From Pristiophorus japonicus (lineage: Eukaryota), in the NCBI RefSeq assembly GCF_044704955.1, contig NC_091986.1, forward strand, positions 187,922,001-187,986,000: DNA of 64,000 nt. Reading direction: 5' to 3'. The notes below the pieces were generated by a model. The model was given only the letters and a program-made list of their open reading frames with translations. It was not told where the DNA came from and did not search any database. Below, piece after piece: positions 1 to 51,794 of this stretch. The stretch's first letter is position 1, and each line of letters begins with the position of its first letter. Made by a program: the position numbers and the translations under genes.

Positions 1-655
1 AGAGATAGAGAGAGAGAGGGAGGGAGAGAGAGAGGGGGGGGCGTCGGGTCGGGGAACAGGAGCGCGGGTCGGGTCAGTCGGGGGGGGGGAGCGGGTCTCG
101 GGTCGGGGCGGGGGGGGAGCGGGTGTCGGGTCTCGGGGCGGGGAGGGGGGGGAGTGGGTGTCGGGTCTCGGGGCGGGGCGGGGGGGGAGCGGGTGTCGGG
201 TCGGGGCGGGGGTGGGGAGCGGGTGTCGGGTCGGGGGGGGGGAGCGGGTGTCGGGTCGGAGCGGGTGTCGGGTCGGGTCTGGTCGGCGGGCGGGGGTGGG
301 GGGGTGGGTGGAGCGAGTGTCGGATCTGGTCAGGCGGGGAGCAGGAGCTGGCCGTGGGAGGAGCCCCAGTGAGGCCATTGGGCCAGGGCTAGGGGCTGCG
401 TGCTTCGGGCCCCTCCCACACAGTTCGGCGCCTGGAGCTACTGCACTTGCGTGCCGACTGTAGCGCATGTGCAGAGGTCCCGGCACTGTTTTCAGCGCCG
501 GGACCTGGCTCCGCCCCCCCACAGCTCGTGCTGACTGCGCCGAGGGCCAGAGGACCTGTTAGTAGGTGCAGAATATCGAGGATTTTTTTAGGCGCGAAAA
601 ATGGGCGCCCAGCTCAGAGGGGCGCCCGTTTGTTTTCTTGTGGAAACTTGGGCCC
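1..655 (-). mobile_element. GC-rich non-autonomous TIR element (Harbinger-like), runs off the window start
   Basis: Ends in GGAAACTTGGGCCC (642-655). Its reverse complement matches the left arm of the complete element at 48028 (gggcccaagtttc...ggcggagccaggtccc...gctgaaaacagtgccgggacctctgcacatgcg). Internal (gggtc)n and (ag)n low-complexity tracts explain the Gly/Arg-rich ORFs. Confidence 0.75.
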
Positions 656-1499
656 ATTGTCTGGACCAACACATGATGAAAGAACACTTCAGCGTGGTAA
701 CTGAAGTTCTCATATCTCCATGGAACCATGCTCCAACAGTCTTGTCCTCTTCCCCCAAAATGAATGGGCTATAGTGAAAGCTTTTCTTGCAATGTTGAGA
801 TCCTGTATGATATTGAATGGCAATATGAATGAATATGTATACAACACTGAGGATCGAACGAGAACCATGCCCAACAAAGGGTCCTGCTGATGTCCTCTTC
901 ACTCAACTGTTATCTCGTGTTCACGTAGAGTACTGCTTTCCTCCAGTTACGATGCATTTAGTCCATTAAGAGAGAAAAAAGTACCATCTTTTCTTTCATT
1001 GAGCATGCAAAGTATTTGATTATCTTCTGTCGAGATATCCTTACTCATTGTCTGTCACAGCTGCTTGTATGGGGCCCATTTAGCTACTTTCCCTTCGCTT
1101 GAGTGCCTATTCTGCAAGTACAACAACCTTTTATGTGCGTAGGTAGCATGCAAATTAGCCCCTAATTAGAACATCCTGTTTGAGTTCTAATTGTGTGCAT
1201 ACCATTGGAGGGGGGTGGGGAAACATTATCATCTGATTATAATTTACTTTGTTCTCGTAAGTACTTATAAAAGGACGTTGTACATAATATAAAATTATAA
1301 CTATGCGAATTATAACATATAACAAATGAGATGAACATGATTAAGTATATAAGCAAGAGTTGTACTTTGTCATGCAAAGATGTACAGGCACACATAATCT
1401 AGAAACAACCGCATATCCCTGAAGTAAGGAAGGCATGCTCGTGACTTTATCATCACAAGTAAAGTTGCAGAAGTCTTACTCAGGAGTTGTGCATGTATT

Positions 1500-3882
1500 A
1501 TTCAGAATATCTGGGACAAAATTAGTGTGAAGGAAATAGAGGGTGCGGAATTCCTAAAATGCATTCTAGAGAACTTTTTTAGCCAGTATGTAGCAAGTTC
1601 AACATGAGAGGGAGCGGTTCTGGATTTAGTTTTAGGGAATTAAGCTGGGCAGGTGAAGGGGTATCAGTGGGACAGCATAAGTGCTAGTGACCATAATTCA
1701 GTCAGATTTAAGGTAGTTATGCAAAAGACAAGGATAGACCAGGAATAAAAGTTTTAAATTGGGGAAAAGCCAACTTTGCTAGTCTGCGAAGTGATTTGAC
1801 TATAGTGGACTGGAAACAGCTACTTGAAGATAAATCAGTGTCAGAGCAGTGGGAGGCATTTAAGGAGAAGGTCCATAGGATTCAGGCTAAATATGTGCTC
1901 TTAAAGAAAAAGGATAGGACTGACAAATCTAGAGCCCCTGGATGTCGAGGGACATACAGGATAAGATAAAGAAAAAAAGTTAAACTTATGACAGATACGG
2001 AGGGCTAAATATTGCAGAATCTCTAGATAGAAAGTCCAGCAGCAAAATTAAAAAGGATATTAGGAAAGCAAAGAGAGAGCATGAAAAATTATTGGTAAGT
2101 AAAATCAAGGAAAACCCAAAGATGTTCTATAAATATATTAAGAGTAAGAAGATAGCTAAAGAAAGGGTAGGGCTTATTAGAGACTATGAGGGTAATCTGT
2201 GTGGACGCAGAAGATGTGGGTATGGTTCTAAATGAATACTTTGCAATTGTTTTCACAAAAGAGAGGGGTGATGCAGACACTACTATTGAGGAGAAGAAGT
2301 GTGAAATATTAGATGAAATAAATATAATGAGAGAGGAGGTATTAAATCACCAGGCCCGGATGAAATGTTTCCCAGGCTGCTAAGTGAAGCAAAAGAGGAA
2401 ATAGCAGAGGCTTTGACGATCATTTTCCAATCCTCTCTGGCTACAGGTGTGGTGCCAGAGGACTGGAGCGCTGCTAATGTGGTACCTTTGTTTAAGAAGG
2501 GAGAAAGGTATAGACCGAGTAATTACAGGCCAGTCAGCCTAACCTCAGTGGTGGGAAAATTATTGGAAAAACTCCTGAGGGACAGGATAAATCTTCACTT
2601 AGAAAGACACTGGTTAATCAAGGACCGTCAGCACGGATTTGTTAAGGGAAAATTGTGTCTGACTAACTTGATTGAATTTTTCGAGGAGGTAACCAGGAGG
2701 GTCGATGAGGGCAGTGTGTATGATGTTGTGTATATGGATTTTAGCAAAGCTTTTGATAAGGTCCCAAAAAGGTAAAAGCCCATGGAATCCAGGGCAAAGT
2801 GGCAAGTTGGATCCAGAATTGGCTCGGAGGCAGGAAGCAAAGGGGAATGGTTGATGGATGTTTTTGCGACTGGAAGGATGTTTCCAGCGGGGTTCCGCAG
2901 GACTCAGTATTGGTCCCTGCTTTTTGTGATTTACATCAATGATCTAGATTTGAATATAGGGGGTATGATTAAGAAGTTTGCAGATGATACTAAAATCGGC
3001 TGCGTGGTTGATAATGAAGAAGAAAGCTGTGGACTGCAGGAAGATATCAATCAATTGGTCAGGTGGATGGCAAATGGAATTTAATCCAGAGAAGTGTGAG
3101 GTAATGCATTTTGGGAGGGCTAACAAGGAAAGGGAATACACATTAAATGGTAGGACACTGAGAAGTGTAGAGGAACAAAGGGACCTTGAAGTGCATGTCC
3201 ACAGATCCCTGAAGGTAGCAGGACAGGTAGATAAGGTGGTTAAGAAGGCATACGGAATGCTTGCCTTTATTAGCCAAGGCATAGAATGCAAGAAGCAGGG
3301 GGGTTATGCTTGAACTGTATAAAACACTAGTTAGGCCACAGCTGGAGTACTGCGTGCAGTTCTGGTCACCGCATCCACAAGGAAGGATGTGATTGCACTG
3401 GAGAGGGTACAGCGGAGATTAGCAAGGATGTTGCCGGGAGTGAAGAATCTAAGCTATGAGGACAGATTAGATAGGCTGGGTTTGTTTTCATTGGAACAGA
3501 GGAGGCTGAGGGGAGACCTCATTGAGGTGTATAAAATGATGAGGGACTTAGATATAGTGGATAGAAAGGGCATATTTCCCTTAGCAGAGGAGTCAACAAC
3601 CAGGGGGCATAAATTTAATGTAATTGGTAGAAGGTTTAGAGGGAATTTGCGGGGAAATTTCTTCACGCAGAGAGTGGGTTGTGCCTGAAAGGGTGGTAGA
3701 GGCAGAAACCCTCACTACATTAAAAAAGTACTTGGATGTGCACCTGAAGTGCCATAACCTGCAGGGTTACAGACCAAGAGCTGGAAAGTGGGATTATGCT
3801 GGATAGCCTCTTGTTGGCAGGCATGGATACGATGGGCCGAAATAGCCTCCTTCTGTGCTGTAAACTTCTGTGATACTATGAT
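1500..3882 (+). mobile_element. CR1 LINE, 5'-truncated, frameshifted ORF2 (EN remnant plus RT)
   Basis: ORF fragments NYRPVSLTSVVGK, YMDFSKAFDKV, KFADDTK, QMEFNPEKCEVMHFG, RRLRGDLIEVYK; CR1 3' tail ttctgtgatactatgat. Confidence 0.92.
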
Positions 3883-7727: not shown

Positions 7728-8048
7728 TTAAGATGACATTCGGAATCCCTTCGTTACCACATCTGGAATAAAAAGCTTGTATCATAATGGTGACCATGAA
7801 ACTACTGGATTATTGTAAAAACCCATCTGGTTCATGAATGCTTTTTAGGGAAGGAAATCTGCTGTCCTTACCTGGTCTGGCCTACTTGTGACTCCAGACT
7901 AACAACCACGTGGTTAATTCTTAACTGCCCCCTGATGTGGCCTAGCAAGCCACTCAGTTGTTCAAGGGCAAATAGGAATGGGCAGTAATTGCCGGTCTTG
8001 CCAACAATGCCCACATACCAAGAACTAATAAATAAAAAATAATAAAAA
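7728..8048 (+). mobile_element. SINE combining the 5' region and 3' tail of the LINE family at 25765
   Basis: atggtgaccatgaaactactggatt...aaaaacccatctggttca...ccactcagttg matches 25915-26086; it then jumps to gggcaaataggaatgggcagtaattgccggtcttgcc and an A-rich end. Confidence 0.8.
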
Positions 8049-11101: not shown

Positions 11102-12101
11102 AGGGGATCATTTTAGCTTTGGGTGATAGTGTAAAATGGGCGATATTAACTCAGCCGCTCGTTATAGGTCTCTTCCGGTTTTCATTTCCATTTGGAGTCA
11201 AATTAGGATTAATAATCGGGAGAGATGCATAACGGGCGGCTGAATCGATATCGCCGTCTCATACTATTGCCTAAAGTCAAAATTCCTCCCCGGTTCTTTT
11301 CTCATGGGGTTGGATACTGACATGACATTTGTAATATGGGCGATAGCCAATCGGCAGCTCGCTTTGCATCTCTCCCGATTTTGAGAAATAAAATCCGGGA
11401 GAGATGTAAAACGGGCGGCTGATTCGCGATTATCCATCAGCAGGCCGGGGCCATTGGTGAGAGCAGCGTGCGGTGGCCCAGCCCGGAAATCGGCGCGGTC
11501 CCAGCCTGCAAGACCATCAGCAGGCCGGGGCCGTTGGAGGGAGCAGCGTGCGGCGGCATACCACTGCAGGGAGCAGCGCGTGCTGCTGCAGGAGGGAGAC
11601 GGCTGCGAAGCCAGGTCGCTGACTGCAGTGCGGGCAGGCACAGCAGGAGGGGCGAAGGAGCGGCAAGAGTCCATAGAGGGAAGTGACCGGGGCCCAGGAG
11701 AGGTGTGAGTTCGGGGCCCAGTAGAGGCGAGGACCTAGGGGCAGCGCGGACCAGCCCACACTGCGATATGTGTGCGCACTAGGTCCGTGCAGCGGAGCTG
11801 GTCTCCAGTCATCTTGGGTAATCCTTGCCACTGGACCAAGACCTAGCTCTGTCAAGCCCGTGTGGTGGCTGGTGTGCAACGGCCACCACAAGTTTAAAAA
11901 AAATCCACACACAGGCATCTTCCACCCTTCAATATGTAGTTCGGGATCTGGAATATTAGTTCAGGATCTGGAACATTGAAACACCTGTGAATTCATCACT
12001 TTTTGGCATGGGAGCAAGTCATCCTCGCTTCGAGAGACTGCCTATGATGATGATGATGATGACCCATTTTACACTATCGCACTAAGTCAAAATTTACCCC
12101 G
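11102..12101. mobile_element. Harbinger-like MITE interrupted by an RTE-derived SINE
   Basis: Inverted termini including gatagtgtaaaatggg / cccattttacactatc; CTG duplicated at 11099-11101 and 12102-12104. Confidence 0.7.
11438..12062 (+). mobile_element. Bipartite non-autonomous RTE element (RTE 5'UTR joined to RTE 3' tail)
   Basis: 11790-11955 matches the 5'UTR and ORF start of the RTE at 57315-57480; the 3' end gcaagtcatcctcgcttcgagagactgcctat(gat)n matches the RTE tail at 58139-58190(-). Confidence 0.85.
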
Positions 12102-13024: not shown

Positions 13025-14711
13025 GAACCTTCCGGATATAAAAGGGGTCAGAGGGTCTAGTAAGGTGGAGGAACTGAGGGAAATCTTTATTAGTCGGGAA
13101 ATTGTGTTGCGGAAATTGATGGGATTGAAGGCCGATAAATCCCCAGGGCCTGATGGATTGCATCCCAGAGTACTTAAGGAGGTGGCCTTGGAAATAGCGG
13201 ATGCATTGACAGTCATTTTCCAACATTCCATAGACTCTGGATCAGTTCCTATCGAGTGGAGGGTAGCCAATGTAACCCCACTTTTTAAAAAAGGAGAGAG
13301 AGAGAAAACAGGGAATTATAGACCGGTCAGCCTGACCTCAGTAGTGGATAAAATGATGGAATCAATTATTAAGGATGTCAAAGCAGCGCATTTGGAAAAT
13401 GGTGACATGATAGGTCCAAGGGAATTGTGAAAGGGAAATCATGCTTGACAAATCTTCTGGAATTTTTTGAGGATGTTTCCAGTAAAGTGGACAAAGGAGA
13501 ACCAGTTGATGTGGTATATTTGGACTTTCAGAAGGCTTTCGACAAGGTCCCACACAAGAGATTAATGTGCAAAGTTAAAGCACATGGGATTGGGGGTAGT
13601 GTGCTGACGTGGATTGAGAACTGGTTGTCAGACAGGAAGCAAAGAGTAGGAGTAAATCGGTACTTTTCAGAATGGCAGGCAGTGACTAGTGGGGTACCGC
13701 AAGGTTCTGTGCTGGGGCCCCAGCTGTTTACATTGTACATTAATGATTTAGACGAGGGGATTAAATGTAGTATCTCCAAATTTGCGGATGACACTAAGTT
13801 GGGTGGCAGTGTGAGCTGCGAGGAGGATGCTATGAGGCTGCAGAGTGACTTGGATAGGTTAGGTGAGTGGGCAAATGAATGGCAGATGAAGTATAATGTG
13901 GATAAATGTGAAGTTATCCACTTTGGTGGTAAAAACAGAGAGACAGACTATTATCTGAATGGTGACAGATTAGGAAAAGGGAAGGTGCAACGAGACCTGG
14001 GTGTCATGGTACATCAGTCATTGAAGGTTGGCATGCAGGTACAGCAGGCGGTTAAGAAAGCAAATGGCATGTTGGCCTTCATAGCGAGGGGATTTGAGTA
14101 CAGGGGCAGGGAGGTGTTGCCACAGTTGTACAGGGCCTTGGTGAGGCCACACCTGGAGTATTGTGTACAGTTTTGGTCTCCTAACTTGAGGAAGGACATT
14201 CTTGCTATTGAGGGAGTGCAGCGAAGATTCACCAGACTGATTCCCGGGATGGTGGGACTGACCTATCAAGAAAGACTGGATCAACTGGGCTTGTATTCAC
14301 TGGAGTTCAGAAGAATGAGAGGGGACCTCATAGAAACGTTTAAAATTCTGACGGGTTTAGACAGGTTAGATGCAGGAAGAATGTTCCCAATGTTGGGAAG
14401 TCCAGAACCAGGGGTCACAGTCTAAGGATAAGGGGTAAGCCATTTAGGACCGAGATGAGGAGAAACTTCTTCACCCAGAGAGTGGTGAACCTGTGGAATT
14501 CTCTACCACAGAAAGTAGTTGAGGCCAATTCACTAAATATATTCAAAAGGGAGTTAGATGAAGTCCTTACTACTCGGGGGATCAAGGGGTATGGCGAGAA
14601 AGCAGGAAGGGGGTACTGAAGTTTCATGTTCAGCCATGAACTCATTGAATGGCGGTGCAGGCTAGAAGGGCTGAATGGCCTGCTCCTGCACCTATTTTCT
14701 ATGTTTCTATG
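13025..14711 (+). mobile_element. CR1 LINE, young, 5'-truncated; RT ORF largely open (13427-14425)
   Basis: [45 protein letters not shown]; tail ttctatgtttctatg. Confidence 0.95.
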
Positions 14712-15212
14712 TAAACTTCCATAAACTTGAACTCATCCAAAACTTGGCTGCCTGTATGCTAACTCGCACCAAGTCCCGTTCACCCATCACCCCTGTGCTC
14801 GCTGACCTACATTGGCTCCCGGTCCGGCAACATCTCAATTTTAAAATTCTCATCCTTGTTTTCAAAGCCTTCCACCTCCTCCAGCCCCAAAACCCTCCGA
14901 GATCTCTGCGCTCCTCCAATCCTGGCATCTTGCGCATCCCTGATTTTAATCGCTCCACCATTGGTGGCCGCGCCTTCAGTTGCCTAGGCCCCAAGCTCTG
15001 GAATTCCACCACTAAAGCACTCCGCCTCTCTACCTCTCTTTCCTCCTTTAAGATGCTCCTTAAAACCTACCTCTTTGACTAAGCTTTTGGTCACCTGCCC
15101 TCATACGTCATTATGTGACTCAGTGTCAAAAATGTTTGTTAACGCTTCTGTGAAGGACCTTGGGACGTTTTACTATATTAATAACCATAAATAAATGCAA
15201 GTTGTTGGTTAT
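14712..15212 (+). mobile_element. L2-clade LINE 3' end
   Basis: KLELIQNLAACMLTRTK...ITPVLADLHWLPV...AFSCLGPKLWNS...FKMLLKTYLF; tail aaatgcaagttgttg. Confidence 0.85.
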
Positions 15213-15842: not shown

Positions 15843-16950
15843 TAGAAAGAAAGATTTGCATTTATATAGCACCTTTCTATAGCACAACATGCAAATGGCA
15901 TGTTGGCCTTCATAGCGAGTTGATTTGAATACAGGGGCAGGGAGGTGTTGCTACAGTTGTACAGGGCCTTGGTGAGGCCACACCTGGAGTATTGTGTACA
16001 GTTTTGGTCTCCTAACTTGAGGAAGGACATTCTTGCTATTGAGGGAGTGCAGCGAAGATTCACCAGACTGATTCCCGGGATGGCGGGACTGACCTATCAA
16101 GAAAGACTGGATCAACTGGGCTTGTATTCACTGGAGTTCAGAAGAATGAGAGGGGACCTCATAGAAACGTTTAAAATTCTGACGGGTTTAGACAGGTTAG
16201 ATGCAGGAAGAATGTTCCCAATGTTGGGGAAGTCCAGAACCAGGAGTCACAGTCTGAGGATAAGGGGTAAGCCATTTAGGACCGAGATGAGGAGAAACTT
16301 CTTCACCCAGAGAGTGGTGAACCTGTGGAATTCTCTACCACAGAAAGTAGTTGAGGCCAATTCACTAAATATATTCAAAAGGGAGTTAGATGAAGTCCTT
16401 ACTACTCGGGGGATCAAGGGTTATGGCGAGAAAGCAGGAAGGGGGTACTGAAGTTTCATGTTCAGCCATGAACTCATTGAATGGCGGTGCAGGCTAGAAG
16501 GGCTGAATGGCCTGCTCCTGCACCTATTTTCTATGTTTCTATGTTCGCAACCACTGGACATCTCAAAGTGCTTTACAGCCAATTAGGTACTTTTTGCAGT
16601 GTAGTCACTGTTGTAATGTGGGAAATGCGGCAGCCAGTTTGCACACAGCAAGCTCCCACAAACAGCAACGTGATCATGACCAGATAATCTGTTTTTGTGA
16701 CGTTGGTTGAGGGATAAATATTGGCCCGGACACCGGAGATAACTCCCCTATTCTTCTTCAAAATAGTTCCATGGGATCTTTTACGTCCACTGGGGAGAGT
16801 AGACAGGTCCTTGATTTAATGTCTCATCCGAAAGATGGTACCTCCGACGGTGCAGCCCTCCCTCAGTACTACACCGGAGTGTCAGCCTAGATTTATGTGC
16901 TCAAGTCCCTGGAGTGGGATTCGAACCCACAACCTCCCGACTCAGAAGTG
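15843..16950 (-). mobile_element. SacSINE1-like SINE split by a CR1 insertion
   Basis: Tail gatttgcatttatatagcacc at about 15853; the body resumes at about 16547 and runs to the B-box gggattcgaaccc at about 16916. Confidence 0.8.
15891..16544 (+). mobile_element. CR1 3' fragment, same young subfamily as 13025-14711
   Basis: ORF 15945-16451 [19 protein letters not shown]...; nearly identical to about 14060-14711. Confidence 0.93.
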
Positions 16951-18640: not shown

Positions 18641-19903
18641 ATTATCAGTGCCCCCATTGTGGAATCAGGCTACCCCATCATGCAGTTAGTGAAATGCGGC
18701 ATATATTTTACAACTTACAAAATTGTTGCTGTTGAAAAACATTAAAAAGCAGCATGTGAGTAATTGGTAGTGTGTTACAGGCTACAACATCACCTCAGGG
18801 TTTACATGACTGTATAAATCACCCCAGTTTTGTTCAGGTTTATGTCATTATTTGAACACCTCGATCATGTTAACAATCTTTGTATAACACTCTAGACTGT
18901 ACGTATTATTTTGTATTACAAGAAGCCCGATGCCTAGAGTGGCTGTACCTCTCCTGTCCCTGTCCTTACAGCAGGTCAGGGAGAGTAAATGTGTTTCCAT
19001 GTGTTGTCTTGGAAAAATAGCTAAGATAGTGGCCTTCGTTGGAAGTAAAATCTGAATCAGATACTGGTTTCCTTTGTTCCTTTTCGTCCTCTAGTGAATA
19101 CCGATCGGAGTCTGTTCCTGGAGACAGAGTATTCCTTTAATAATTCAAAAAAAGATCGATGTCCCTTGAATTTATGTTTCTGAAGGAGGTACATGGCTTG
19201 GATCACTGATATTCTTTTCAGGTGTTGGTCTTGTGAAGAAAAATCCTTCAGAATCCCCTCTGCTATTGCCGTGGAAGAGTCTCCTGTGGAAATCCTTTGA
19301 CTGCCAAAGGCAGAGTTGTCAACCATGGCCACAGACACAGTGGAGTTACAGCTATCCTCGGTGAAAATGAGGTTAATTATTGCCACTTACTAGTATTACT
19401 AGTCAATCTCCTGGGCAGATAAGACATAGTGCAGTCTTCAGGTGAAGCAGTGTTAGAAGGCAGGGGACATTTGGACCAGCGCACACAGATGTCGTTCCGT
19501 ACCCATTTTAAAGTCACACATTCTATTCTATCATATTTTTTCCCCCCCTATATAAATCCCCATGTCCATATTTATAATGGGAAATGCCTATGTAAACTTG
19601 TCATGCTGTAATTACACTCTCCCGCCAGGGTTGGTGCTCCAGCATGCCAGGTTCACATAGGCAGTTTACATTGCAAATGTGATGACAGGAATTTATAATG
19701 GAAAAAGGGGACAGGATGTGCATGCAGCTGCACGATTTTTAATACACTATATAGATATATTTGTGAAAGCATTGCTCTGCTTCTCGTTAGTTCCCTCAAA
19801 GAGTGGTTCTATATTACTGTAAGCAGGGAGAAGAGACAGACTGTGGAGGACTCAGTTGCACATTCTGGATCAACATTTCTTTGATTTGCAGTCGTCTTCT
19901 CTT

Positions 19904-23135: not shown

Positions 23136-23615
23136 CTGGGCTGGGGGTGCTGGGCCAGGTCACCATGCTGCTAACCTTCCGCTCCCCGGCCTGCTCCGAT
23201 GATGCTGGCAGGCTGGCCCAGCGCCCCTGGCTGGGATCCACGCAGACTGCTGGGCCAGGCTGCCACACTGCTCCTTCTGCTCCCAGTTCAGGCCCCAGAA
23301 GAGGCGTGGGCCCAGGGACAGCATGGGCCAGCCCACACTACGATACGTATGCGCACTAGCTTCGTGCAGCAGAGCTGGTCTCCAGTCGTCTTGGGTAACC
23401 CTTGCCACTGGACCTAGCTCTGTCAAGCCCGTGTGGTGGCTGGTGTGCAACGGCCACCACACGTTAAAAAAATCCACGCACAGGCATCTTCCACCCTTCA
23501 AAATTTAGTTCGGGACCTGGAACATTAGGTCCTTCATTGAAACACCTGTGAACTTTTTGGCGTGGAAGCAAGTCAACCTCGATTCGAGGGACTGCCTATG
23601 ATGATGTTGGTGATG
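23136..23615 (+). mobile_element. Bipartite RTE-derived SINE with an inverted 5' segment
   Basis: 14-bp TSD atatatagatg(g/a)ca at 23122-23135 and 23616-23629; about 23290-23615 is colinear with 11710-12060. Confidence 0.82.
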
Positions 23616-24981: not shown

Positions 24982-25764
24982 CCCTAAGCGCTGGAATTCC
25001 CTCTCTGCCTCTCTGGCCTCCTTAAAACCTACATTTTTGACCCAAGCTTTTGGTCACCTGCCCTGATATCTCCTTGTGTGGTTTGGAGTCATATTTTGTT
25101 TGATAATCGCTCCTGTGAAGCGCTGTGGGACGTTTTACGATGTTAAAGGCGCTATATAATTACAAGTTGTTGGTGGTAAGGCTTTCATAATTTAATAACC
25201 CCTTGAGTGAGAATAAAAGTCATCTCATCCTCCCCCTTTATGTTTCTAGTGCTAATCCTAAATATATTTGGTAAATACAGGGAAAAAGCTGCCATGCTTT
25301 AGTACACCGCTGACCAGTTTGCATCTGTAAATAGCAAAAACAGATTAATGTTTTGAGTGTATCCCTACATCTGAAAGTTGTTCCTAAATATATGCCCTTT
25401 GTTACTGATTCTTTGTCCAGTGGAACACTTTTGACAAATGAAAAAGGATTATCCTGAAAAACATCGATCGTGAAACAAAATCTAATCAGTGAACCATACT
25501 GACAATATTAGCAAGTGCCCTGCTAATGACTAGTTCAAGTGAGAGTAGGATGGGTCAAATCAAATTTCTAAGAGGACTTGCCAGTTCCCTAATTTTAAGC
25601 AAAAACAGGGCAGTGCTCCATGCCCAGCATTGCAATACATCACTGTTCCAAAATAGTAACTTAGCTTTTCTGTTTCAAGATGCTGATAGATGAAGTATAT
25701 TTATACTTATTCTGTTTTTGCTTTAAACCAGAATTGGACACAAGAAGTTTATATGAGACTGTGG

Positions 25765-28700
25765 GGATGGTAGCAAAGTGGTTATGTTGTTGGACTAGTA
25801 ATGCAGAGGCCTGGACTAATGATCCGGAGACATGAGTTCATTCCCCACGGCAGCTGGGGAATTTAAATTCAGTTAATTAAATAAATCTGGAATAAAAAGC
25901 TAGTATCGGTAAAGGTGACCATGAAACTACTGGATTGTCGTAAAAACCCATCTGGTTCACTAATGTCCTTTAGGGAAAAAAAATCTGCTGTCCTTACCCG
26001 ATCTGGCCGATATGTGACTCCAGACCCACAGCAATGTGGTTGACTCATAACCACCCTCTGGAATGGCCTAGCAAGTCACTCAGTTGTAACAAACTGCGAC
26101 AAGAAACAATAATAAGAATAAAACTGGACGGACCACCTGGCATCGACCTTGGCACCGGCTTCGGACACGGCAACGGACCAGCCCAGTCAACCCTGCAAAG
26201 TCCTCCTCACTAATATCTGGGAACTTGTCAAAGCAACCACCTGATGTGGTCACACTCACAGAATCATACCTTTCCACCAACTCCTCCATCACCATCCCTG
26301 GGTATGTCCTGTCTTACCGGCAGGGCCGACCCACCCAAGGTGATGGCACAGTGGTATAGAGTCAGGAGGGAGTGGCCCTGGGAGTCTCATGGCTCCAGGT
26401 CAAGCATGGGCAAGGAAACCTCCTGCTGATTACCACCTACTGCCCTCAGAAGATGAATCAGTACTCCTCCATGTTGAACACCACTTGGAAGAAACACGGA
26501 GGGTAGCAAGGGCACAGAATGTACTCTGGGTGGGGGACTTCAGCGTCCATCATCAAGAGCGGCTCGGTAGCACCACTACTGACCAAGCTGGCCTGAAGTA
26601 CATAGCTGCCAGACTGGACCTACGTCAGGTGGTGAGAGAACCAACACGAGGGGAAAAACCCACTTGATTTCGTCCTTACCAATCTACCTGTCGCAAATAC
26701 ACCTTTCCATGACATTATTGGGAGGCGTGACCGCCACACAGTCCTTATAGAGACAAAATCCTGTTCACACTGAGGACACCCTCCATCGTGTTGTGTGGCA
26801 CTGCCACCGTGCTAAATGGGATAGATTTAGAACAGATCTAGCAGCTCAAAACTGGGCATCTGTCATCACCATCATAGGCAGCCCCTCGAAACGAGGATAA
26901 CTTGCTTCCACGCCAAAAAAGGATGAGTTCACAGGTGTTTCAATGAAGGACCCGAACTACATCCTCAAGGATGGAACATGCCTGTGCGTGGATTTTTTTA
27001 ACGTGTGGTGGCCGTTGCACACCACACTGTGGGCCATCAGCAGCAGCAGCAGAATTGTATTCCACCACAATCTATAACGTCATGGCCCACCATATCCCGC
27101 ACTCTACCATTACTATCGAGCCAGAGGACCAATCTTGGTTCAATGAGGAGTGCAGAAGAGCATGCCAGGAGCAGCACTAGGCGTATCTAAAATTGAGGTG
27201 CCATCACAGGGCTACATGCATGCTAAAAAGCGGAAGCAGCATACTATAGACAGGGCTAAGCGATCCCACAATCAATGGATCAGATCAAAGCTCTGCAGTC
27301 CTACCACATCCAGTCGTGAATGATGGTGGACAATTAAACAACTAACAGAAGGAGGAGGCTCCATGAAAACCCCCATCCTCAATGGTGACGGAGCCCAGCA
27401 CGTGAGTGCACAAGACAAGGCTGAAGCGTTTGCAACCATCTTCAGCCAGAAGTGCGGAGTGGATGATCCATCTCAGCCTCCTCCTGTGGTCCCCACCATC
27501 ACAGAAGTCAGTCTTCAGCCAATTCGATTCACTCCACGTGATATCAAGAAACGGCTGAGCGGACTGGATACAGCAAAGGCTATAGGCCCTGTCAACATCC
27601 CGGCTGTCATGCTGAAGACTTGTACTCCAGAATTAGCCGTGCCTCTAGCCAAGCTGTTCCAGTACAGCTACAACACTGGAATCTACCCGACACTGTGGAA
27701 AACTGCCCAGGTAGGTCCTGTCCACAAAAAGCAGGACAAATCCAATCCGGTCAATTACCGCCCCATCAGTCTACTCTCCATCATCAGCAAAGTGATGGAA
27801 GGTGTCATCGACAGTGCTATCAAGCAGTACTTACCCACAAATAACCTACTCACCGATGCTCAGTTTGAGTTCCACCAGGACCACTCGGCTCCAGACTTCA
27901 TTACAGCCTTGTTTCCAAACATGAGCAAAAGAGCTGAATTCCAGAGCTGAGGTGAGAGTGACTGCCCTTGACATCAAGGCAGCATTTGACCGAGTGTGGC
28001 ATCAAGGAGCCCTAGTAAAACTGAAGTCAATGGGAATCAGGTAGAAAACTCTCCACTGGCCGGAGTCATACCTAGCACAAAGAAAGATGGTTGTGGTGGT
28101 TGGAGGCCTATTATTCCAACCCTAGGACATCGCTGCCGGAATTCCTCAGGTCAGTGTCCTAGGCCCAACCATCTTCAGATGCTTTATTAATGACCTTCCC
28201 TCCATCATAAGGTCAGAAATGGGGATGTTCGCTGATGGCTGCACAGTGTTCAGTTCCATTCACAATTCCTCAGATAAAGGAATGCATGCAGCAAGACCTG
28301 GATGACATTCAGACTTGGGCTGATAAGTGGCAAGTAACATTCACGCCACACAAGTGCCAGGCAATGACTATCTCCAACAAGCAAAAATCCAGCCACCGCC
28401 CCTTGACATTCAACGACATTACTATCGTCAAATCTCCCACCATCAACATCCTGGGGAATCACCATTGACCAGAAACTTAACTGGGCCAGCCACATAAACA
28501 CTGTGGCAACAAGAGCAGGACAGAGGCTGGGTATTCTGAGGCGAGTGTCTCACCTCCTGACTCCCCAAAGCCTTTCTACCATCCACAAGACACAAGTCAG
28601 GAGTGTGATGGAATACTCTCCACTTACCTGGATGAGTGCAGCTCCCAACCACACTCAAGAAGCTCGACACTATCGAGGACAAAGCAAACCACTTGATTGG

Positions 28701-28945
28701 CACCCCATCCACCATCTTAAAACATTCACTCCCTCCACCACCGACGCTCCGTGGCTGCAGTGTGTACCATCTACAAGATGCATTGCAGCAACTTGCCAAG
28801 ACTTCTTTGACAGCACATTCCAAACCTGCGACCTCTACCACCTAGAAGGACAGGACAGCAGGAGCATGGGAACACCATCACCTCCAAGTTCCCCTCCAAG
28901 TCACGCATCATACTGACTTAGAAATATATCGCCGTTCCTTCATCA
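25765..28945 (+). mobile_element. CR1/L2-group LINE with a tRNA-like 5' head, disrupted EN-RT ORF, 3' end missing
   Basis: A-box tagcaaagtgg at 25771; EN motif VLWVGDFSVHH; RT-region KAIGPVNIP...NYRPISLLSIISKVME; dikaafd and FAD equivalents in shifted frames; QTWADKWQVTF. Confidence 0.85.
26863..27024 (-). mobile_element. 3' fragment of the bipartite RTE SINE inserted in the LINE
   Basis: tcatcaccatcataggcagcccctcgaa...gtggtggccgttgcacacc is the reverse complement of 11870-12060. Confidence 0.85.
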
Positions 28946-28949
28946 TCAT

Positions 28950-29190
28950 TCACTCCACTCGCCGATTCCCTCCGCCGCTCGTCGATCCATGCCGCTCCTC
29001 TGCTCGCCGATTCCCGCCGCTCCTCACCACCTGCCGTTTCGCGCCACCCATGGCCCCGCTCCCGACGCTGCGTTTTTTACCGGTTTCCTCGCCCCTCGTT
29101 GCCCGATGTCGCCACCTTGGCCGCCTCAAAAATGTCCAGTTTTCGGACAATACCAGTTTTCGGAATTCCGGATACGAGACGTTGTACCTG
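28950..29190. mobile_element. Right half of a Tigger-like MITE
   Basis: Ends ccggatacgagacgttgtacctg|TA with ccagttttcgga subterminal repeats; the left TIR is absent. Confidence 0.55.
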
Positions 29191-41852: not shown

Positions 41853-42644
41853 TAGCATTGCCAACTCTGGTTAGATGTAGTCCTGGAGGTTTCATCACAT
41901 GGCCTCCTGTCTACAATCTACCCATCCACTCGCTCTTGCCATTGGTCAACCCTGTGGTGCCCCGCCTTCCCATGCCAGGAAAACAAACAGACTGTTACCT
42001 TTTCTTAAATTCATTGACAGGATATGGGCATCGCTGGCATTTATTGCCATCCCTAATTGCCACTGAAAAGGTGGTGGTGAGCCGCCGCCTTGAAACACTG
42101 CAGTCCTTGTGATGAAGCTACTCCCACAGTGCTTTTAGGGAGGGAGTTCCAGGATTTTGACCCAGCGACGATGAAGGAACAGCGATATACTTCCAAGTCA
42201 GGATGGTGTGTAACTTGGAGGGGAATGTGGAGGTGATGGTGTTCCCATGTGCCTGCTATCTAGGTGGTAGAGGCCGCGGGTTTGGGAGGTGCTGCCGAAG
42301 AAGCCTTGGCAGGTTGCTGCAGTGCATGGCACACTCTGCAGCCACGGTGCGCCAGTGGTAGAGGGAGCGAATGTTGAAGGTGGCAGATGAGGTGCCAATC
42401 AAGCGGGCTGCTTTGTCCCGGATGATACCTGATTTGGATGATTCCTAAATGACCGTCAAACAACCATTTTTCCCAATGAATGAATGCATTTTTATAAAGA
42501 ATAATTGAAAGTGTTCAAAAAATAAATCAACTTTTTTTTAACGCTCTTATCATTTTTCTCCTGGGTTGCTTGCAGCAGTGTCCGGGATGATTAATCTTGA
42601 ATTCCTGAAGCCTGCGGGATAATCCTGGAGGGTTGGCCACCCTG
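41853..42644. mobile_element. hAT (Blackjack-like termini) non-autonomous element containing a LINE 3' fragment
   Basis: tagcattgccaactct ... agggttggccaccctg (degenerate TAGGGTTGCCAAC-type TIR); tcctggag subterminal repeats; flanks ttaacagc/gttacagt. Confidence 0.55.
42001..42425 (-). mobile_element. 3' end of the LINE family seen at 25765-28945
   Basis: Reverse complement overlaps 28680-28945 and continues to the tail ggcaattagggatggcaataaatgccagcgatgccc. Confidence 0.85.
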
Positions 42645-51411: not shown

Positions 51412-51786
51412 ATTTTCTTCATTCATTCACAGGATGTGAGGGTTGCTAGCAAGGCCATCATCCCTAATTGCCATGAGAAGCTGGTGGTGCCGTCTTCTTA
51501 AATACTGAATGGCTTTCAGAAGGCAGTTAAGAGTCAACATATAGGCCAGACTGGGTAAGGGCAGCAGATTTTCTTTCCTAAAGGATGTTAGTGAACCAGA
51601 TGGTTTTTTTATGGCTATCCGGTAATTACACGGGCACCATTACTGATACTAGCTTTTTATTCCAGATTTATTTAATTGAATTTAAATTACACAGTTGCTA
51701 TGGTGGGATTTGAACTCATGTCTCCAGATCATTAGTCCAATCCTCTGGATTACTAGTCCAGTAACATAATCACTATGCTACCATAC
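51412..51786 (-). mobile_element. tRNA-headed SINE related to the 25765 LINE, with intact head
   Basis: Minus strand atggtagcatagtgattatgttactggactagtaatccagaggattggactaatgatctggagacatgagttcaaatcccacc...; tail ggcaattagggatgatggccttgctagc. Confidence 0.82.
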
Positions 51787-51794
51787 AGATCACA

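Follow-up and report, generated by a model that had tools for sequence, protein, structure and literature searches.

How should an element be placed that begins like a SINE and continues as a LINE? The divide between the two rests on polymerase and coding, that is, LINEs are Pol II mRNAs and SINEs are non-coding Pol III RNAs. The window analysed here, by which we mean the whole stretch of 64,000 nucleotides of Pristiophorus japonicus DNA, holds a locus that appears to combine these traits: the original prediction described a LINE coding for endonuclease (EN) and reverse transcriptase (RT) that starts with a tRNA-like Pol III head, carries two tandem anticodon arms and has no visible ORF1, and proposed an autonomous family that had captured a SINE/tRNA promoter. 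The locus hence raises the question of whether head and LINE are one element and, if so, which polymerase would transcribe it and where its translation would start. The explanation that we favor as a whole, if only slightly, reads the locus as a dead copy of an elasmobranch Zenon element that was tRNA-headed, likely transcribed end to end by Pol III and likely translated without an AUG.

The copy in the window aligns with the majority sequence of its family (below) over nt 2-1188 at 85% and over nt 1198-3139 at 91%. Its extent, its coding part and the pieces that interrupt or accompany it are:

25763..28947, + strand: decayed copy of the Zenon LINE with intact 5' end, several deletions, one insertion and the final ~180 nt absent, from alignment to the majority sequence
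26090..28947, + strand: remains of the EN-RT frame, broken, with an Arg-rich N-terminal stretch, EN from ~26197 and RT from ~27570
26861..27024, no strand assigned: unrelated short repeat inserted later into the LINE copy, missing from other copies and found elsewhere in the window
42056..42435, - strand: 3' fragment of another LINE copy

The first EN strand starts at ~26197; EN coding had been predicted to begin about 400 bp after the head motifs. Pfam detected an RT piece at 27324-27947 in the window and the EN domain in another copy of the family (L071). The window is rich in repeats, with four of the 25 long frames scanned matching RT and none a host gene family. An unclassified short repeat is inserted in Zenon copies at several loci (window 26861-27024, 11870-12070 and 23441-23609, as well as L104 and L128), and the place of the LINE 3' end is taken by GC-rich sequence with short inverted repeats (28948-29190) that has the look of a DNA-transposon piece.

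The relation of the head to the LINE can be read from the other copies in the 5.9 Gb of genome searched. A query made of head and EN, which selects for the junction, gave 12,863 first-look candidates, and the leader was joined to the EN-RT frame at all 39 other loci scored with it. An EN-only query, which allows the copies that span the junction to be counted, picked 29 other copies, 11 of which reach the same tRNA head (one via an insertion, one with a deletion); 12 of the remaining copies end inside the leader, one in the N-terminal stretch and five inside EN, and the flanks of these 5'-truncated copies are mutually unrelated by eye. Four copies ending at one AT-rich spot were considered as a second head type and rejected, their flanks being unrelated. 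Contigs from four other organisms (four runs) also bridge the leader body and EN, and 51 of 78 head-bearing alignments begin at nt 1-4, just before the A box at nt 11. Alternatively, a SINE might by chance have inserted upstream of a truncated LINE here, or an ORF1 might have been lost locally, and short SINE-like copies that share this head are indeed common (27 of 29 matches, see below). However, the junction is not unique to this locus but recurs at dozens of loci as well as in other species, which refutes the chance insertion; no common ORF1-like sequence is seen upstream of the copies by eye, and Zenon is without ORF1 in every lineage surveyed in the portion of Stuart et al. (PMC13343379) used here, which argues against a deletion confined to this copy. 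We consider the probability of either event negligible. Head and LINE are, with near certainty, one family unit, and the head-body-ORF-tail arrangement across loci bears out the predicted, once-autonomous LINE family with a tRNA-derived 5' head. That this unit arose by "capture" of a SINE head by a LINE is plausible.

Derived from 69 copies at a depth that falls from ~60 at the 5' end to 12-19 at the 3' end, the majority sequence spans 3,311 nt, with the head at nt 3-97, a non-coding body to ~330, the frame at 332-3250 and a short tail with an A-run. It has a single EN-RT frame of 973 codons, and the longest frame upstream has 99 codons. Because the copies are diverged from the majority (median 6.9%, range 3.1-10.6) and none of them proved to have the full frame intact, with no young intact copy found either, the family looks inactive in this genome. 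The source elements, on the other hand, appear to have been under protein selection, since non-CpG variants that copies share within the frame are distributed 23:8:8 over codon positions 3:1:2. No clear case of target-site duplication was found in the 34 copies with both ends. A cluster of exact matches was rejected as a set of young copies: at G000:C9:201-228 Mb (L194-L209, L214-L231; the C9 cluster), at least 34 near-identical multi-kb units spread over ~27 Mb, with pairs up to 100% identical, each contain majority nt 335-992 of Zenon as one and the same dead fragment adjoining CR1-like sequence, that is, one dead fragment was amplified together with its flanks in a recent large segmental or composite-repeat amplification. 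In addition, residues 578-652 of a predicted shark zinc-finger protein model (P0006) are a Zenon EN fragment (77% identical), probably an annotation artefact.

Judged by sequence, the family is the published elasmobranch Zenon (CR1-Zenon) LINE (Stuart et al. 2026, PMC13343379), with the comparison covering the first ~400 nt of each row of that paper's supplement. The supplement's Zenon consensuses contain exact matches to motifs of the family, and SquAca_Zenon-1/2/3 and the CarCar, ScyCan, RhiTyp and HypSab _Zenon-1 consensuses represent the same family; SquAca_Zenon-1 is near-identical to our majority over the first ~400 nt by eye and of similar length (3314 vs. 3311 nt). Both the majority, with its single APE-RT frame (EN and RT by Pfam) and poly(A) tail, and published Zenon, in the part of the paper covered, have one EN-RT frame, no ORF1 and an A-tail. 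The lack of ORF1 noted originally is thus real, but it is no oddity, being normal for the Zenon clade (PMC13343379, same part). The closest full-length proteins to the family's EN-RT are 38-39% identical. Read by eye over the first ~400 nt, each of the seven consensuses from sharks and rays begins with the head; two from hagfish and one from coelacanth lack it and contain TTTT runs within that stretch. A search of the paper's main text gave no matches for "tRNA" or "polymerase III", and the head, the T-run pattern and the missing AUG are undescribed there. In the open literature, Repbase/Dfam entries aside, we found no paper on a tRNA-headed Zenon or on a Pol III-made LINE. The motifs of the leader body had no counterpart among the SINE superfamilies (Meta, Deu, V, CORE) in the supplements of PMC4824008 and PMC7245038, domain-consensus figures aside, and the body matched no named SINE domain in the text, with part of the figures and files, of PMC4824008, PMC7245038, PMC5499810 and PMC11481361. 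What we describe is a known LINE family with undescribed features, namely the tRNA head, the T-run pattern and the missing AUG; new here are the TTTT before the A-tail, the leader hairpin with its anticodon-like loop and the tandem duplication that made arm 2.

The family also has a short form, present twice in the window:

51413..51787, - strand: short bipartite form, head and body joined to the LINE's final ~105 nt, SINE-like
7761..8040, + strand: short bipartite form, 5'-truncated (body and tail)

The first of these had been called a SINE; it is actually the short head-body-tail form of the same LINE family and, used as a query, returned 27 short forms and two LINEs among 29 matches. The short forms have the leader joined to the LINE's last 45-145 nt, frequently at one junction, and differ from the LINE copies at eight sites, and because of this recurrent junction and these differences we think that they spread as a SINE-like lineage of their own. 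Short and non-coding, the ~430-nt form would pass as a SINE, which the 3.3-kb element would not. It may have acted as a non-coding parasite sharing the promoter and tail of the LINE, and it suggests how one internal deletion can turn a LINE into the source of a SINE-like family. Persaeus (PMC6740152) is likewise a 5'+3' derivative of a Zenon LINE, amplified by itself; however, this lepidopteran derivative is without tRNA homology or a Pol III promoter, whereas the short form here is SINE-like in every part.

The head itself comprises four parts:

25771..25781, + strand: Pol III A box, 8 nt past the family's sharp 5' end
25790..25806, + strand: arm 1, an anticodon-arm-like hairpin with a loop like tRNA-Thr(AGT) and a stem like tRNA-Ser
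25811..25827, + strand: arm 2, a 21-nt unit that repeats arm 1 and its spacer in tandem, at the position of a variable arm
25834..25844, + strand: B box, damaged in the window copy and consensus-like across the family

All four were found where they had been predicted. The B box, called degenerate from the window copy, fits GWTCRANNC in 44 of the 69 copies with the whole head, and A and B boxes at the 5' end, together with tRNA homology, characterize a tRNA-derived (type 2) Pol III promoter. Arm 1 has one G.G mismatch in the window copy and is intact in the minus-strand copy (51745-51761), and arm 2 has five pairs, one of them G.U. The proposed duplication is confirmed by the majority, where the arms form a 21-nt tandem pair with 18 of 21 positions identical. 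The reading of the loops as Thr-AGT and Ile-AAT anticodons has to be given up: the loops vary between species, the arm 1 loop being changed in the whale shark and ray consensuses, and the arm 2 loop has 8-9 nt or, in the ray consensus, is absent with its arm. Judging from these comparisons, the arm loops are not working anticodons, and the cloverleaf of a functional tRNA is also lacking (acceptor and T stems are poorly paired). ARAGORN called tRNA-Thr(agt) at 51696-51787, in the 51.7-kb copy, and made no tRNA call in the 25.8-kb head; with Rfam, the window was free of tRNA matches at E<=1, and one other copy of the family had a 13-bit tRNA match (E=9), below the cut-off of 29. Since the head of the window copy folds into a cloverleaf no better than shuffles do (z 0.77), the arms are read from the family and not from this decayed copy. 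By eye, over the available starts of a few lineages, the arm 2 stem of the CarCar and ScyCan consensuses differs with one pair altered on both sides, three altered one-sidedly to a pair and none broken, RhiTyp retains the CarCar/ScyCan-type stem with an 8-nt loop, and the ray has lost the arm; because of these pair-keeping changes and this loss, arm 2 seems to have been retained as a hairpin in sharks and yet to be dispensable.

The parent tRNA of the head may have been either Thr or Ser. In arm 1, a loop like that of tRNA-Thr(AGT) sits on a stem that, like the distance to the A box, matches a tRNA-Ser-like gene in the same genome, and the Ser-like gene scores 61.5 vs. 51 for Thr with both arms and 55 vs. 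56 without arm 2. The genome also contains a tRNA-Ser-type gene with a long variable arm and an AGT anticodon, adjoining a tRNA-Asp gene (L162 1486-1566, G000:C23), likely an anticodon-shifted Ser gene or a pseudogene, and, close to the end of a contig, a long array in which tRNA-Lys(TTT) genes are repeated in tandem about every 1.2 kb (G000:C3:83-510 kb, L132-L157).

With regard to the polymerase, the sequence leads us to consider Pol III transcription of the full-length element probable. TFIIIC would bind the A and B boxes and Pol III would start ~8 nt upstream of the A box, read through a 3.3-kb body free of T-runs and stop at the terminal T-run; the RNA would then be A-tailed as in T+ SINEs and copied from its tail by EN-RT. 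The sense strand of the majority contains no TTTT vs. 15 AAAA in 3311 nt, while 4.0 TTTT are expected by base shuffle (P 0.017) and 5.2 with uniform synonymous codons (P 0.003), and TTT occurs in seven of 89 TT runs (P 0.002). Among CR1-type elements, four majorities built from the same DNA have 7, 3, 4 and 3 TTTT vs. 4.6, 3.0, 4.1 and 2.8 expected, and two T-poor controls have no TTTT and are uninformative. However, dinucleotide and own-codon shuffles lower the expectation for the majority to 1.7 (P 0.16) and 1.9 (P 0.11), respectively, and a low-T RTE control also has 0 (vs. 0.4 expected), so that a C/A-rich coding bias may explain the lack of T-runs. At the tail, T-runs of 1-9 precede the A-run, with T4 or more at nine of 46 distinct loci among the matches listed, and 400 of 2,847 exact tail matches genome-wide run directly into TTTT, a count without another A-tailed element as comparison. 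Among 20 such TTTT tails examined, 16 belong to coding copies, one to a short form and three are one duplicated tail, and 18 continue into at least two A. In T+ SINEs, according to the part of PMC8466645 used here, a T-run or its rudiment likewise precedes the A-tail and T-runs grow by slippage after insertion, in old copies, and for the latter reason the tail T-runs of Zenon are suggestive only.

It is possible instead, though we think it rather unlikely, that the element was a LINE transcribed by Pol II whose 5' UTR came from a SINE; the head would have been joined once and retained as an RNA structure, as a promoter for Pol II or chiefly for the sake of the short form, the RNA being capped. 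LINEs are generally Pol II transcripts (PMC5786205), lepidopteran Zenon has been mobile despite having no Pol III promoter (PMC6740152), AATAAA motifs and an A-tail are compatible with Pol II, and the lack of T-runs is not significant under the dinucleotide- and codon-aware shuffles. Such a reading sits less well with boxes that sharks and a ray retain at the very 5' end, and that are more perfect in three of the shark consensuses (supplement rows, first ~400 nt), with 5' ends that fall just upstream of the A box and with T-runs that occur at the tail and not inside; moreover, scanning from a cap would meet nine leader AUGs before the frame opens.

For Pol III transcription, which we prefer, the nearest parallels are partial. 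B2, Dip and Ves, which are T+ SINEs (PMC8466645, same part), share with Zenon a tRNA head, AATAAA near the 3' end and a T-run or rudiment before the A-tail, but they are non-coding, ~200 nt long and mammalian, and their Pol III polyadenylation was established by experiment, whereas the case for Zenon comes from sequence. RTE-1_DAn and the elements related to it (Kojima 2018, PMC5786205) are LINEs with tRNA-like sequence matching SINE2 heads; unlike Zenon, they belong to the RTE clade and another host, with the place and function of the tRNA-like part unstated in that paper, and no further paper naming RTE-1_DAn was found in the literature searched.

Translation poses a larger oddity, which the original prediction had missed: the EN-RT frame has no AUG where one would be needed. 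The features concerned are:

25855..26089, + strand: conserved non-coding leader body, common to the short form and the shark and ray consensuses
26058..26083, + strand: terminal leader hairpin (predicted) with an anticodon-like 7-nt loop at 26068-26074, a candidate mimic of IRES pseudoknot I
26096..26098, + strand: site of the EN-RT-frame GCT codon complementary to the hairpin loop, GCG in the window copy
26118..26120, + strand: ATA in the window copy and ATG in other species, in a short overlapping frame outside the EN-RT frame

The first Met of the majority frame is codon 287, beyond the endonuclease, and the frame is likely to be without a usable AUG and to have been translated without one, as read from sequence. 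The start of translation is limited to codons 1-38 by an in-frame stop just upstream of the frame, present in 51 of 64 copies, and by the first EN strand, at codon 38. A Met-free EN is weak evidence when taken alone, because six homologues carry just 1-3 Met there. The nearby ATG of other species sits in the overlapping frame; here the site is ATA in 56 of the 63 covering copies and ATG in two, and the G allele makes up 7-86% of contig depth in four other runs. In a larger set, whose gap ranges are not identical, the ratio of ATA to ATG is 154:1, which is inflated since the C9 cluster is one dead fragment amplified with its flanks.

We tentatively propose, with considerable doubt, an IRES-like start at GCU. 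Under this model, the uncapped RNA would recruit ribosomes via the conserved leader and the EN-RT frame would be entered somewhere in codons 1-38, the GCU codon able to pair with the anticodon-like hairpin being the likeliest point. The last element of the leader is predicted to form a two-stem hairpin whose 7-nt loop has the anticodon form CU-AGC-AA, and GCTA, complementary to the loop, follows 12 nt past the hairpin, with GCT in the EN-RT frame of the majority. Pair probabilities of the hairpin are 0.75-0.95 in four of five contexts and 0.5-0.8 in the fifth. In the 3.3 kb, only arm 1 and this hairpin are anticodon-like, and in 0.6% of body shuffles such a hairpin arises together with a 4-nt partner no more than 30 nt away, a motif that was defined post hoc. 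Hairpin and GCTA occur in six of the seven published Zenon consensuses, and GCT is kept in the EN frame in four other species across a diverged A-rich stretch and not in the three Squalus consensuses (by eye, within the ~400 nt compared). A subfamily (11 of 66 copies) has two loop bases changed and one stem pair broken, with AGC and GCT retained; within the genome, the loop-codon pairs, which amount to 4 bp, show no covariation. The model is the intergenic (type 6) IRES of dicistroviruses, where an AUG-less frame starts at a GCU or ACA codon, both common as first codons, behind a hairpin with an anticodon-like loop that pairs downstream (pseudoknot I; PMC12221177, in the part consulted), and a commentary raised type 6-like IRESs as a possibility for non-LTR elements (PMC3894237, likewise in part). 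The AUG-less frame of Zenon would, similarly, open at a GCU/ACA codon pair behind its predicted hairpin. Unlike the type 6 IRES, however, the Zenon leader has a loop pairing of only 4 bp and a 12-nt linker, no PKII/PKIII or SLIV/SLV was identified in it, one copy's leader gave no Rfam IRES match (E<=10), and Zenon is a cellular retroelement whereas the dicistrovirus IRES is viral.

About as likely as the IRES-like start is a -1 frameshift, in which ribosomes, on RNA of either polymerase, would start at an AUG of the short frame (majority nt 276 or 360) and change to the EN-RT frame ahead of the first EN strand; we would call this possible but not probable. The short frame overlaps EN-RT codons 1-57 and is opened by one of the two AUGs in each lineage read, although neither AUG is retained in all lineages (by eye, same consensus starts). 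Length changes at nt 363-445 are multiples of three in 17 of 39 cases vs. 6 of 62 in the leader; however, period-6 repeats can explain 3n deletions, and those suit either frame. Since the C9 cluster shows 3-nt slippage in the A-rich tract of dead DNA, we no longer count in-frame indels there as evidence of frame selection. There is no X XXY YYZ slippery site by eye, and the predicted hairpin contains the candidate site instead of following it.

Combining the two proposals gives a self-mobilising, Pol III-made coding RNA of 3.3 kb with a T+ SINE-like ending, started by an initiator-tRNA-free IRES whose hairpin mimics tRNA-Ala(AGC) on GCU, a combination that we regard as improbable. If true, an abundant and long-lived element of sharks and rays, coding for EN-RT, would count both as a naturally occurring Pol III mRNA and as an autonomous element with a SINE head, and a single 450-nt leader would bear both on Pol III RNA as mRNA in vivo and on factor-less, AUG-free initiation outside viruses. 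Pol III-made mRNA, AUG-independent L1 ORF2 and HDV-like ribozymes are said to offer precedents, to which we gave no weight.

Finally, two further features of the window deserve mention. A long hairpin at 19563-19683 has a weak Rfam match to mir-214 (36 bits, cut-off 66.7) and is more likely the remnant of a palindromic repeat than a microRNA. The 3' part of a CR1 element is present as a 654-nt direct duplicate, at 14060-14712 and 15891-16544, with 98.6% identity and 1.8 kb apart.
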